Assembly: GCA_964404345.1 (NCBI GenBank)
Contig: CAYOJS010000001.1
Location: 1,839-44,236, forward strand
Direction: 5' to 3'
Origin: an uncultured Methanosarcinales archaeon
GTDB lineage: Archaea; Nanobdellota; Nanobdellia; Woesearchaeales; SM23-78
DNA length: 42,398 nt
Shown here: in pieces, positions 6,379-42,398 of the stretch
Numbering within the stretch: the first letter of the stretch is position 1
Layout: each line of letters starts with the position of its first letter
Notes under the pieces: generated by a model
The model's database searches: none
What the model was told of the DNA's origin: nothing
What the model saw: only the letters and a program-made list of their open reading frames with translations
Position numbers and translations under genes: made by a program

Positions 6379-6420
6379 ACCGGATGAGGGGGGTTCAAAT
6401 CCCTCCGGGCTCGCCTTTTT

Positions 6421-6583
6421 TTCAGTGCAGTATCGAACGAAGTGAGATACTCAGAATTCGGCGGAGTTCTGGTACCAGAAATCCCTAGGATTTCTGTGTA
6501 CTGCGGTTCAGGGTTCTAGGGAAGTGCTCAGAAATCATGGATTTCTGGCACGCCAAGAGCTTTGTTCTTGAGCGAATTCCCTA
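6421..6583 (+). repeat. ORF-less hairpin array between tRNA-Arg and the orphan copy of its 3' end
   Basis: Five consecutive hairpins: AGTATC/GATACT (6429-6451), CAGAATTC-GGCG-GAGTTCTG (6452-6471), a 14-bp stem at 6471-6502 with loop CTA, a 13-bp stem at 6524-6551 with loop ATG, and CAAGA/TCTTG (6554-6570). The CAGAA...TTCTG core recurs. Confidence 0.55.
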
Positions 6584-6606
6584 GGTTCATATCCCTCCGG
6601 ACTCGC
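6584..6606 (+). repeat. orphan direct repeat of the tRNA-Arg 3' end
   Basis: GGTTCATATCCCTCCGGACTCGC versus GGTTCAAATCCCTCCGGGCTCGC at 6392-6414 (21/23 identical). Both copies are followed by a T-run. No matching 5' half or T-stem partner was found. Confidence 0.7.
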
Positions 6607-6688
6607 TTTTTTATTCCTTTCCAGTAAAACACCTATAGAAAATTATTCTCCAACACCACCTTTCCTTAAACAAAATCTTTAAAAAGAG

Positions 6689-40605: not shown

Positions 40606-41334
40606 ATGAGCTCATTAAAGCCCGTTTCAAGCCCCGTTCCTAAGCACGTTGGAATCATTCTAGATGGTAACAGGCGCTTTGCAAAGCGCTTAATGATGAA
40701 ACCCTGGAAGGGTCACGAATGGGGCAAGGAAAAGGTGATTAAAGTCTTAGAATGGGCGAAAGAGCTCGGAATCGAAGAGATTACCTTTTATGCCTTTTCA
40801 ATGCAAAATTTCAATCGCCCAAAAGAAGAATTTGATTACCTGATGAAGATATTCAAGGAAATGTTACAGGAATTACTGGAAAAACTGGAAAAGAAAGACA
40901 AATCAGTTCAAGACATGATGGTGCGTTTCATTGGAAGAATCAAATTATTCCCTTCTGAAATCAAAGATAAAATGCTAGAGGTCATGGAAAAAACAGCTGG
41001 AAAGAAGAAGTACACCGTCAATTTTGCCATGGCTTATGGGGGCCGGGAAGAGGTGATGGATGCGGTTTTAAAGATTGCGGAGCAATTGAAAAAAGGTCTT
41101 TTGGATGTTTCTCAGATTAATGAAGAAGTTTTTTCAAAGAACTTGTACATGGCCGATGAGCCTGACATGATCATCCGTACTGGTGGAGAAAAGCGTACAT
41201 CTAACTTCTTGATTTGGCAGGGTAATTATGCTGAACTCATTTTCTTGGACAAAATGTGGCCGGAGATCGAAAAGACCGACTTGGTGGCGTGCATTGAAGA
41301 ATACAAGCAACGGGAAAGAAGGTTTGGTCGTTAA
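40606..41334 (+). CDS. uppS: undecaprenyl diphosphate synthase (cis-prenyltransferase)
   Basis: 'HVGIILDGNRRFA', 'TFYAFSMQNFNRP' and 'IRTGGEKRTSNFLIWQ'. Confidence 0.9.
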   Translation: MSSLKPVSSPVPKHVGIILDGNRRFAKRLMMKPWKGHEWGKEKVIKVLEWAKELGIEEITFYAFSMQNFNRPKEEFDYLMKIFKEMLQELLEKLEKKDKSVQDMMVRFIGRIKLFPSEIKDKMLEVMEKTAGKKKYTVNFAMAYGGREEVMDAVLKIAEQLKKGLLDVSQINEEVFSKNLYMADEPDMIIRTGGEKRTSNFLIWQGNYAELIFLDKMWPEIEKTDLVACIEEYKQRERRFGR

Positions 41335-41336
41335 AC

Positions 41337-41609
41337 TTATCGCGCGCGTTTAAAGCTGGTTAAGAATTCTTTGTTTTTTTCTTCCAATCGGTCCAGGGCT
41401 TTGTGGAGTACCTTTTCGGTTTCACCTTCTTTAGTTTCGAGGATGAGTCGGGGGTTTCCAATCAAGGGGTGATTGATGGCATACGTGCTGATTTTGACAT
41501 CTTTATCTTGCCAGAGTTCATTCTTGAGCAGATTACAGAACGTGTGGTCAGCGCCTTTAAGTTCAAACACCAATCGCTTTTTAGTGTGCTCAAGAATGTT
41601 GAGTTCCAT
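41337..41609 (-). CDS. rpoL: DNA-directed RNA polymerase subunit L (Rpo11)
   Basis: 'LVFELKGADHTFCNLLKNEL...YAINHPLIGNPRLILET'. Start taken at MELNIL; the track start is 41654. Confidence 0.85.
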   Translation of the reverse strand: MELNILEHTKKRLVFELKGADHTFCNLLKNELWQDKDVKISTYAINHPLIGNPRLILETKEGETEKVLHKALDRLEEKNKEFLTSFKRAR

Positions 41610-41650
41610 GTTTTTAGAGCGTTGGGGGGGATTTATATAGTTATCGGCCT

Positions 41651-42160
41651 TCATCCAAAGACTTTATCCCAGAGTGTCGTTTGATTGGTTCGGACGCGGG
41701 TGAGGAGTTCTCCTTTGAAGGTACGATCATTAAAGCTAAGAAGAGGGTCTTGGAAGGTGATGCGGAGATTGCCTTTGAGTTTATCTCCTTCTGCATAGGT
41801 GCCGTTGGGTGGTTTGCAAAAAAGCAGTTTGGGGGTGGAAACCGTATTGCCTAAGTCTCCAACCGATTGGGTTTCGTGACAGGGGGTCTTACTCTGATTG
41901 GTGGTTTCTACTTGGATACGGACTGCTTTGATGTCCATTCCGTAGAGGTTGAAGATTTCAAGTTCAAAGCCTTCCGGAACGAAGGCTTGTTTACATCCAA
42001 AGCCTTTGCTAAAGTTGCATTTATCAATGGAAAAAACATCTTCATCGTACAAGTAAAAATACCCCAAGGCAATAAGGCTGATGAAAAAGACACCAAAGAA
42101 AAGGATGAGGGTGAAGGAGTAATCTCCTTGTGCTTTAGTCATTTTTATAGCAAATTGCAT
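41651..42160 (-). CDS. membrane-anchored hypothetical protein
   Basis: A hydrophobic helix 'FTLILFFGVFFISLIALGYF' follows 'MQFAIKMTKAQGD'. The upstream 47 codons of the track ORF run through a hairpin array and are probably non-coding. Confidence 0.5.
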   Translation of the reverse strand: MQFAIKMTKAQGDYSFTLILFFGVFFISLIALGYFYLYDEDVFSIDKCNFSKGFGCKQAFVPEGFELEIFNLYGMDIKAVRIQVETTNQSKTPCHETQSVGDLGNTVSTPKLLFCKPPNGTYAEGDKLKGNLRITFQDPLLSFNDRTFKGELLTRVRTNQTTLWDKVFG

Positions 42161-42299
42161 TGATTTTAAAACTTTTCGCAATTTGCTATGCTCAGCAGCA
42201 AAGCTGCTGGCACACAGAACTCGAAGAGTTCTGGTGCGAGGATTTTTCAAATCCTCTGCATGCCAGAAACGATAGTTTTTGAGCATGCTAGCGAATCTC
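42150..42299. repeat. hairpin array related to 6421-6583
   Basis: GCAAATTGC/GCAATTTGC (42150-58 / 42178-86), CAGCAGC-AAA-GCTGCTG (42193-42209), CAGAACTC-GAA-GAGTTCTG (42215-42233), GAGGATTT-TTC-AAATCCTC (42238-42256), GCATGC...GCATGC (42258-63 / 42283-88), then AGCGAATCTC. Confidence 0.5.
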
Positions 42300-42310
42300 A
42301 CTATTTGTTG

Positions 42311-42348
42311 TATATTTTATGATGTTATATATTTTATGATGTTATATA
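42311..42348. repeat. perfect 17-nt tandem repeat (TATATTTTATGATGTTA x2, plus TATA)
   Basis: Copies at 42311-42327 and 42328-42344. Read on the minus strand, each unit carries a TATA-like element upstream of the 41651.. gene. Confidence 0.7.
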
Positions 42349-42398
42349 GAGAGGTTTGAATAACTCTTTTTTTTGTGTTTAGAATGTTTTTTGATTGG

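Follow-up and report, generated by a model that had tools for sequence, protein, structure and literature searches.

A hairpin array upstream of a pilin-like gene in a woesearchaeal genome is probably nested mobile non-coding DNA

The stretch of DNA analyzed here (the window; 42,398 nt) corresponds to positions 1,839 to 44,236 of contig CAYOJS010000001.1 (C1) in assembly GCA_964404345.1, from an uncultured archaeon placed in the Woesearchaeales (SM23-78). The genome (G000) is a metagenome-assembled genome (MAG) of 1.38 Mb in 164 contigs, 89% complete and with 44% G+C; contig labels refer to it unless another genome is named. Its uppS gene has close homologues in MAGs of Woesearchaeota / Nanoarchaeota. 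It was compared with two sister genomes of the same genus (G001 and G002), with the closed, 100% complete genome of a relative (G033) and with further relatives (G018, G026 and G126), whose extracted loci carry L-numbers (L104, L116-L118, L123-L130, L134 and L137). The right-hand end of the window holds a minus-strand gene, here called pilin-like gene 2, whose product had no match in Pfam, and upstream of it an array of back-to-back hairpins. An earlier note, made from the letters alone, had taken this array and a hairpin spacer beside a tRNA-Arg gene near 6.5 kb for two copies of an unannotated structured-repeat or non-coding RNA (ncRNA) family. We find that window 42145-42398 is quite probably nested mobile non-coding DNA and not an RNA gene.

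The hairpins themselves are real and their sequence is as described. Window 42143-42310 folds into six consecutive helices, with a minimum free energy of −72.8 kcal/mol on the plus strand (z = −7.67) and −68.1 kcal/mol on the minus strand (z = −9.43), a stability that none of 200 shuffled sequences matched. As the note had also reported, a minus-strand open reading frame (ORF; 41651..42301) reads straight through the array, because the hairpin family is poor in stop codons, adding 53 codons upstream of the real ATG at 42142. The note had judged 47 of these upstream codons implausible as protein, and rightly so: the orthologues in G001 and G002 (54-59% protein identity by tblastn) start at the equivalent of that ATG, so the codons preceding it (47-53, depending on the count) are not translated sequence. 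The orthologues begin MKKAQGDYSFT or MTKRGQGDSSFT and directly follow another pilin-like gene (gene 1), with 2-7 nt between the stop codon of gene 1 and the ATG of gene 2 (spacer TCCC or TA). DNA homology of window 41000-42398 to the two sister genomes halts exactly at the ATG (query positions 10-1143 and 3-1149). In G000, gene 1 and its upstream neighbor were located on contig C93 (83% and 89% identity to the sister genomes). On this comparison, the two genes have evidently been parted onto C93 and C1 by an insertion in G000.

The insertion is delimited by two palindromes, A and B, which belong to a repeat family with the termini TAGC...GCTA and with inverted repeats of the form TAGCRAATYKC and its complement in every copy. 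The basic unit is about 41 bp long and consists of two arms of 11-12 nt around an AT-rich loop of 19-21 nt; the composite, in which A and B flank a hairpin twin, is about 140 bp. Palindrome A is also found on C101, C13 and C44, occurs singly on C16, C136, C104, C146 and C32, and forms the terminal unit of a multi-copy composite in G001, while intact copies of B are present on C13, C32, C146 and in G001. In all, G000 has about 12 single or paired TAGC palindromes, and G001 at least 10 near-identical A-twin-B composites, which cause breaks between its contigs. Four sites that are filled in G001 and empty in G000 could be aligned; in the empty sites the flanks abut or overlap by 3 nt, and in the filled ones TAGC...GCTA is bracketed by TTA/TAA. 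At the window locus the filled site reads GAGAAA[TGA]TAGCGAATCTCA...GCAATTTGCTA[TAA]AAATG and the empty site in G002 reads GAGAAA[TAA]TAATG. Gene 1 on C93 ends in the left-hand copy of the target duplication, its TGA stop codon. One G001 copy (L118) likewise lies between a TAA stop codon and the next ATG. Small, non-coding and multi-copy, with inverted repeats, a target duplication and empty sites, the element is therefore by definition a MITE (miniature inverted-repeat transposable element). As read from these alignments, the insertion in the window is a MITE of two palindromic units (B and A) with a 3-bp TWA duplication, whose target was the TAA stop codon of gene 1. Duplications of this type are presumably made by DDE transposases of the IS5/PIF-Harbinger type, and the TWA duplication suggests that such an enzyme would have moved the MITE in trans.

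Two further layers appear to have been added to this MITE. Between B and A lies a twin of bulged hairpins in inverted orientation (hairpins 1 and 4; Table 1), with a second pair nested in its center. Palindromes A and B are found without the twin on C101 (A-TGC-B) and C13 (B-GAA-A), and with it on C44 and in the window. Since 42213-42257 is missing from all seven aligned composites of G001 and G002, hairpins 2 and 3 must have been inserted into the twin center GGCA^TGCC, where both junctions show a repeated GCA. The AT-rich loop of B has been a repeated target: it holds an insertion sequence (IS) in the window copy and other inserts in the G001 copies L116 and L117. The IS landed there later. 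Its terminus, TATAGAGAGGTTTGAATAAC, occurs on more than 25 contigs, mostly at contig ends (for example C93:1-55, C30, C63, C95, C97 and C150), and its interior is not assembled in the MAG. The IS probably targets TA, and a MITE derivative of about 100 nt is present at C12:6984, C35:3766, C65:8133, C83:1831 and C94:3040.

The two contig ends correspond to each other. Read towards its end, C93 gives ...GAGAAATGA, then TAGCGAATCTCA, two copies of a 17-mer and TATAGAGAGGTTTGAATAAC..., and the window, read in the same direction, gives ...GTTATTCAAACCTCTCTATA, two copies of the 17-mer, CAACAAATAG, TGAGATTCGCTA, the hairpins, palindrome A and TAAAA ATG; in reverse complement, C93:1-100 contains GAGAAATGA followed by TAGCGAATCTCA, and the window TGAGATTCGCTA followed by GCATGCTCA. 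Between them, the contigs thus bear both arms of palindrome B and both ends of one IS (C93:1-55 is the end opposite to that in the window), and each has the same 17-mers. We infer that C93, the IS and C1 are joined in this order. It is thus likely that all of 42145-42398 is inserted DNA in three layers, namely the MITE, the hairpin twin with its nested pair, and the IS. A check for viral origin gave 2 exact matches among 2.9 million viral contigs.

A separate repeat family of about 170 nt also carries a bulged-hairpin twin at its center, between long terminal inverted repeats (TTGTTTAGCATCCTAAGGTCAAAATCC ... GGATTTTGAAGATGCTAAACAA). Its seven copies (Table 1) are 70-88% identical, the one on C29 bears an extra hairpin insert of 46 nt, and the family may be either a MITE family or a structured RNA family.

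The hairpins of the window belong to a family that is dispersed over the whole genome. A census of perfect hairpins revealed a strong excess of stems starting with CAG or CAA, with CAGAAAT alone found 35 times. In the common architecture, 3-6 bp of lower stem end in a C-G pair, a single A or T bulges out on one side or the other, 7-10 bp of upper stem (CAR....YTG) follow, and 3-9 nt form the loop. Scanned strictly for this architecture, the genome gave 100 matches where first-order Markov shuffles gave 10-20. Of these matches, 96 were bulged; a looser scan, allowing one mismatch and 6 bp, was dropped as too noisy (189 matches against about 115 in shuffles). The lower stems covary across family members. 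Seventy-four of the 96 hairpins (77%) lie outside crude ORFs, in a genome that is about 85% ORF, and most of the others lie at ORF ends. The share of hairpins in tandem, in divergent and in convergent spacers follows the length of these spacers, and no orientation relative to transcription is preferred (23 versus 16). A role as terminators or in 3′ untranslated regions was rejected, as convergent and tandem spacers were not enriched beyond their share of length. By the strict scan, 50 of the 71 clusters are singlets, and 18 of the 22 adjacent pairs have a 5′ bulge followed by a 3′ bulge, that is, they are inverted doublets. Since 16 of the 71 clusters adjoin contig ends, the copy number is an underestimate.

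Members of the family also lie within long introns of tRNA genes on C42, C124 and C15. ARAGORN called no tRNA in the window because of tRNA introns. In the tRNA genes at C11:16780-17110 and C140:770-960, very long introns are made up of little else than stacked hairpins, several of which belong to the family; genes of this kind largely or wholly escape ARAGORN and the Rfam tRNA model. The archaeal bulge-helix-bulge motif consists of two 3-nt bulges separated by a 4-bp helix. As an identity for the hairpins it was rejected, because each has a single 1-nt bulge and those in tRNA genes lie within larger introns, where no splice motif was seen by inspection. A bulged-hairpin twin also precedes the 16S rRNA gene, at C136:3450-3500, some 250 nt upstream of the gene's 5′ end. 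At C5:23887-24059, ...GCAACATACAAAAACGTTCCGTTTTTGAAGTGTCA... recurs in three identical copies spaced by 77 nt, which look like a short CRISPR-like array and do not belong to the family.

The earlier note had tied the two arrays of the window together through a shared hairpin, through AAATCC/GGATTT stems and through an AGCGAAT end motif. The first tie holds: CAGAACTCGAAGAGTTCTGGTGC (42215-42237) and CAGAATTCGGCGGAGTTCTGGTAC (6452-6475) share 19 identical positions with one indel, and the T/C difference between them turns a G.U pair into G-C, so that the stem is kept. The hairpin is not confined to these two sites, as the CAGAAYT...ARTTCTG subfamily has 9 copies compared with 1 for the reversed control. 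The other two ties dissolve. The AAATCC/GGATTT arms stand in opposite order, CAGAAATCC..GGATTTCTG at 6476-6497 and GAGGATTT..AAATCCTC at 42238-42256, and thus belong to different hairpins. Counted on both strands, the genome has 180 occurrences of AGCGAAT, close to the chance expectation for a 7-mer in 1.38 Mb; at 42289-42300 it is part of the palindrome arm TAGCGAATCTCA, and at 6571-6577 it is formed by the bulged A and the lower stem GCG of an unrelated hairpin. Nor are the arrays each other's closest relatives in a genome search. The tRNA-Arg array is closest to C144:3162-3245 (82% over 86 nt), whereas that at 42 kb is closest to the composites on C44, C101 and C13 and to at least 10 copies in G001. 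Instead of one hairpin-array element, each array is an independent assembly of small modules from one family. Of the wider claim, a dispersed and unannotated structured-repeat family of about 100 hairpins stands; its reading as an ncRNA or 5′ leader does not, as the array is missing at the orthologous site in G001 and G002.

The distribution of the hairpins among relatives is patchy. The sequence CAGAAAY-N3-9-RTTTCTG occurs 50 times in G000, 47-53 times in the two same-genus genomes, 1-19 times in genomes of the sister genus and 0-18 times in those of other families of the order, with 0-2 occurrences of the reversed control. The bulged form CWCAGAAAY..RTTTCTGG occurs 36 times in G000 and is present in 15 of 92 genomes of the same order and in none of 28 from other orders of the class. 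Single lineages have their own bursts: G126 has 12 copies of CACAGAAACAAAGTTTCTGG, and G033 has four of CAGAAATCAGAGATTTCTG, or five if one CAGAAAC variant is counted, each time with the same flanks. Patchy spread combined with lineage-specific bursts is the pattern of mobile DNA. Ten hairpin-bearing spacers of G000 were checked at the orthologous sites of the sister genomes, and for five of them both flanks lay on one sister contig (C118, C80, C9, C19 and C46; Table 1). The outcomes point to turnover of the arrays, not conservation. In the C118 array, the last hairpin has an AT-rich loop of 21 nt about 25-36 nt upstream of the ATG.

Some relatives carry hairpins inside genes. Five near-identical twins in G033 (L123-L130) lie within ORFs that read as HIT-family, LeuRS-like and ScpB-like proteins, among others, and further cases are a ribosomal-protein-like ORF in G018 (L137) and an epimerase-like ORF in G026 (L134); these names were given by eye from the translations and are not database matches. 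In every case CAG is a codon, and the peptides read ...TQKSEISGA... or ...AQKSSISD.... The only clear in-frame case in G000 is in pilin-like gene 1, and the element in the window is not in a gene. The insertion in gene 1 is 66 nt long, lies in frame near its 5′ end (C93:520-600, minus strand) and contains two hairpins; it duplicates the QTALEFLM segment of an N-terminus that resembles a class III signal, and the two copies differ only synonymously.

Overall, the hairpin modules would have propagated as DNA, being inserted into one another and into non-coding sequence. What is conserved in them is the structure and the stem base, which makes folded single strands their probable active form.

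Table 1. Features of the inserted DNA, its surroundings and comparison sites. Coordinates are those of the window unless a contig is named.
Feature	Coordinates	Strand	Basis and remarks
Pilin-like gene 2: small pilin-like or membrane-anchored protein, 163 aa, MTKAQGDYSFTLILFF...	41651..42142	-	Correct start codon: ATG at 42142
TTA (minus strand: TAA), the right-hand copy of the target-site duplication of 3 bp	42145..42147		Filled compared with empty site
Palindrome A, arms TAGCAAATTGC / GCAATTTGCTA, 19-nt AT-rich loop (42159-42177); minimal TAGC-type MITE unit	42148..42188		Repeat copies
TTTTAAAA in the loop of palindrome A; candidate TATA box of the downstream minus-strand gene	42164..42171	-	Begins at −29 relative to the ATG
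Hairpin 1 of the twin: TGC-T(bulge)-CAGCAGC-AAA-GCTGCTG-GCA	42189..42212		Strict scan (C1:44027-44050); in all G001/G002 composites
Nested 45-nt insertion in the twin center (GGCA^TGCC), holding hairpins 2 and 3	42213..42257		Missing from seven aligned G001/G002 composites; boundaries ambiguous by the flanking GCA repeat
Hairpin 2 (that of the earlier note): GCAC-A-CAGAACTC-GAA-GAGTTCTG-GTGC	42210-42237		Strict scan; member of the CAGAAYT subfamily
Hairpin 3: GAGGATTT-TTC-AAATCCTC	42238-42256		Within the nested insertion
Hairpin 4 of the twin, inverted orientation: GCATGC-CAGAAAC-GATA-GTTTTTG-A(bulge)-GCATGC	42258..42288		Strict scan (C1:44096-44126); kept in G001 copies
One arm of palindrome B, TAGCGAATCTCA	42289..42300		Partner arm on C93, right after the stop codon of gene 1
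Remnant of the palindrome B loop with a tandem 17-mer (TATTTTATGATGTTATA, twice)	42301..42344		TATAACATCATAAAATA twice on each of the C1 and C93 ends
Terminal 54 nt of a high-copy IS with inverted repeat TATAGAGAGGTTTGAATAAC, inserted in the B loop; ends C1	42345..42398		Same terminus on >25 contigs
Comparison site: hairpin spacer between tRNA-Arg and an orphan 3′ end of tRNA-Arg	6414..6615		Family hairpins at 6448-6474, 6472-6501, 6524-6551 and 6551-6574; strict scan position C1:8286-8412 is window 6448-6574
Array of about 130 nt with four hairpins, between the stop of a gene with ftsZ-like sequence and the next ATG	C118:3925-4055		Flanks 3-6 nt apart in G001 and G002
Hairpin array	C80		Absent at the orthologous site in the sister genomes
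Hairpin array	C9		Absent at the orthologous site in the sister genomes
Hairpin array	C19:9186		Kept in G002
Hairpin-bearing spacer	C46		Spacer differs in the sister genomes
Copies of the ~170-nt repeat family	C102:2577-2754, C2:23391-23559, C24:5053-5230, C50:1141-1325, C77:4621-4805, C163:25-203, C29:7920-8095

Several observations weigh against reading the whole array as nested mobile DNA. The junction between C93, the IS and C1 is not assembled, so that the join rests on synteny and matching ends. The left-hand copy of the target duplication is TGA and not TAA, and one substitution has to be assumed, as in one of the G001 pairs. The search for an autonomous partner found no pair of TAGC arms 0.3-4 kb apart in the MAG, and as this assembly is 89% complete and breaks at repeats, absence is not shown. 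No enzyme could be tied to the hairpin modules. Finally, stems and loops are far more diverse than is usual for recently active transposon copies, which implies that much of the family is old or that its structure is under selection.

As to how the hairpins spread, and only in that respect, they could be an archaeal counterpart of the repetitive extragenic palindromes (REPs) and their paired form, the REP doublets forming hairpins (REPINs), with a domesticated transposase of the IS200-like Y1 (HUH) type in the role of REP-associated tyrosine transposase (RAYT), cutting and pasting them in the form of single-stranded hairpins. We consider this unlikely, for all that it has in its favor. The hairpins are short, imperfect bulged palindromes, extragenic and present in about 100 copies, and their adjacent pairs are mostly inverted doublets, as described for REPINs (PMC3116915). 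G000 has three different single-copy Y1 genes and no TnpB (no TnpB/IS605 was found in this genome), and Y1 genes occur in all three genomes of the hairpin-rich genus. One of the three G000 genes (the IS200-like tnpA at C19:3017-3475) has a twin of the family type (C19:2948-3016) about 45 nt upstream, and this twin is kept in G002 contig C27 (L104:498-548) with a compensatory change in the stem (CAGGAAGC/GCTTCCTG versus CAGGAAAC/GTTTCCTG). However, the GTAG or CGTC tag is absent, and the flanks are instead C-(W)-CAR...YTG-(W)-G with variable outer bases of the lower stem. The three Y1 proteins score as IS200 transposases (48-109 bits), but with the NCBIfam model for the REP-associated tyrosine transposase they reach only 24-28 bits compared with a cut-off of 80. 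Family hairpins are missing from the flanks of two of the three genes, and no gene has them on both sides. Genomes with 10-18 hairpins, including the closed and complete G033, have no Y1 gene at all, and hairpin abundance does not follow the Y1 genes. Moreover, the stem sequences vary far more than in REP families.

Such diverse stems would be easily accounted for if each hairpin had been made locally, by template switching or snap-back synthesis that copied neighboring sequence in inverted form. In pilin-like gene 1 on C93, the 3′ arm is native coding sequence (LEFLM) and the 5′ arm is its inverted copy, beside a diverged direct duplicate of QTALEFLM. A HIT-family gene of G033 shows a similar pattern, with the arm GCTTGCAT corresponding to native Cys-Ile codons. 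Yet the empty sites of the twin (C101 and C13) and of the nested pair (the G001 copies) hold neither arm, near-identical hairpins recur at unrelated loci with the same flanks (CACAGAAACAAAGTTTCTGG in G126 and CAGAAATCAGAGATTTCTG in G033), and the stem base CWCAR/YTGG is constant. Local synthesis is therefore an improbable origin for the family.

The position of palindrome A relative to gene 2 may have consequences for transcription. Among 536 genes that start with ATG and are preceded by a spacer of 60 nt or more, TATA-like hexamers have a sharp peak at −30/−29 from the ATG and are almost absent elsewhere, indicating that transcripts in G000 are mostly leaderless. The loop of palindrome A carries GAAAAGTTTTAAAAT, in which TTTTAA starts at −29 of the downstream ATG (the loop motif stands at −29/−28), and the independent G001 copy L118 has the same loop motif at the same distance from its own downstream ATG. 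An insertion into the stop codon within a tight operon would offer the distal gene a TATA box at the canonical place, because the arm (12 nt), the 3-nt duplication and the short spacer add up to that distance. On sequence grounds, palindrome A, with TTTTAAAA at −29, probably now serves as promoter of the gene that it separated from its operon.

The same geometry bears on the possibility that the array functions as a structured RNA, whether as an ncRNA family of its own or by acting on the membrane-protein/rpoL genes as their 5′ leader or as a riboregulator. In favor of this, folding predicts a very stable structure for either strand, the lower stems covary across the family, and family hairpins are certainly transcribed where they lie within tRNA introns. 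However, with promoters at −30/−29, a matching TATA box between array and gene would leave the array outside the transcript. The array is lacking at the orthologous locus of both sister genomes, copies occur in all classes of intergenic region according to length and without orientation bias relative to transcription, and Rfam, run over the whole window at gathering score, returned only tRNA; run over 42100-42398 at E<1 it gave a chance match of 16.5 bits compared with 51. A function as RNA is thus very improbable. Least probable of all is that palindromes A and B originated as operator sites of a dimeric transcription factor by promoters, a rival for origin only, as a mobile element could also be bound: the 11-nt inverted arms, the fixed AT-rich spacer of 19-21 nt with a TATA-like sequence and the several A/B copies just upstream of genes would suit such sites, but insertion is shown by the four clean filled/empty pairs with their 3-bp duplication, contigs of G001 break at its near-identical copies (at least 10), some copies are not beside gene starts, and across the genus the opposite of conservation at orthologous promoters is seen.

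For the nested mobile DNA as a whole, we offer a linked pair of proposals, tentatively, as possible and not as likely. The hairpins (C-W-CAR...YTG-G, 25-30 nt) might be ultra-small mobile modules found throughout the order, in archaea of the Woesearchaeota type, and moved by an enzyme other than a classical RAYT. Inserting as folded single strands, they would be the building blocks of tRNA introns and MITE cores and, in some lineages, would sit in frame in essential genes. The TAGC MITE, in turn, might be a promoter-carrying element that targets TAA stop codons in tight operons and would re-promote the downstream leaderless gene from the TATA box in its loop at exactly −29.

Selfish repeats are ordinary in kind, and the interest here is moderate and in the detail. 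An annotator should read as transposon debris both the apparent structured RNA and the 47-53 codons that precede the ATG at 42142; the roughly 100 hairpins and several MITE families of this genome will mislead ORF callers, tRNA finders and ncRNA screens, and they cause many of its 164 contig breaks. DPANN genomes are thought to be streamlined; here at least three nested layers of miniature mobile DNA lie in an operon gap of 2-7 nt. The hairpin family ties together intergenic repeats, the expansion of tRNA introns and in-frame insertions in proteins within one archaeal order, and the TATA geometry bears on how an operon can be split without silencing its distal gene in a leaderless archaeon.

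The earlier note had suggested a comparison with archaeal MITE and REP-like families; in such a comparison the locus has the features of a MITE and the hairpins lack two defining features of the REP/RAYT system. MITEs are known in the archaea Sulfolobus, Halobacterium and Haloquadratum (PMC10969869). Like these and the Tourist-like (IS5/PIF-Harbinger) elements, the element described here is non-coding and multi-copy, with terminal inverted repeats, a short target duplication of fixed length, empty sites and nested insertions. It differs in that the unit is only about 41 bp and that two units bracket a hairpin twin and move together as about 140 bp. Correia elements (NEMIS) of Neisseria are about 100-150 bp long, have terminal inverted repeats and an A/T-target duplication, lie next to genes and can supply promoters (PMC10969869). 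These belong to bacteria, carry sigma-70 promoters and IHF sites and are processed by RNase III; the candidate promoter in the window, by contrast, is an archaeal TATA box that stands at −29 of a leaderless gene.

The bulged hairpins resemble REPs, the bacterial interspersed mosaic elements (BIMEs) and REPINs, which are bulged palindromes of 20-35 nt, extragenic, in about 100 copies, with inverted doublets and a random distribution over extragenic space (PMC2817692, PMC3116915, PMC5581495, PMC3733652). By contrast with REP/REPIN-RAYT systems, they have no GTAG/CGTC tag and no repeat-flanked gene of the RAYT type, occur where Y1 genes are missing, have diverse stems, and are found in tRNA introns and, in relatives, inside genes. 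They share with the Rickettsia palindromic elements (RPEs; PMC10969869) that, in relatives, hairpin twins lie in frame in conserved genes and are free of stops in the frame used. RPEs are about 100-150 bp long, whereas the modules here are 25-50 nt and most copies in G000 are extragenic. The small dispersed repeats (SDRs) of heterocyst-forming cyanobacteria, treated by Elhai et al. in 2008 (Genome Res), are reportedly hairpin-forming units of about 20-30 nt that have no known transposase and lodge within one another as well as in other repeats. They differ from the hairpins here in sequence and in domain of life, and the comparison serves as a lead. A literature search found no published description of the bulged-hairpin modules in DPANN archaea. 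The modules fit no definition of REP/REPIN, RPE or SDR, and the composite MITE is closest in behavior to the Correia elements and in target duplication to the Tourist-like elements.

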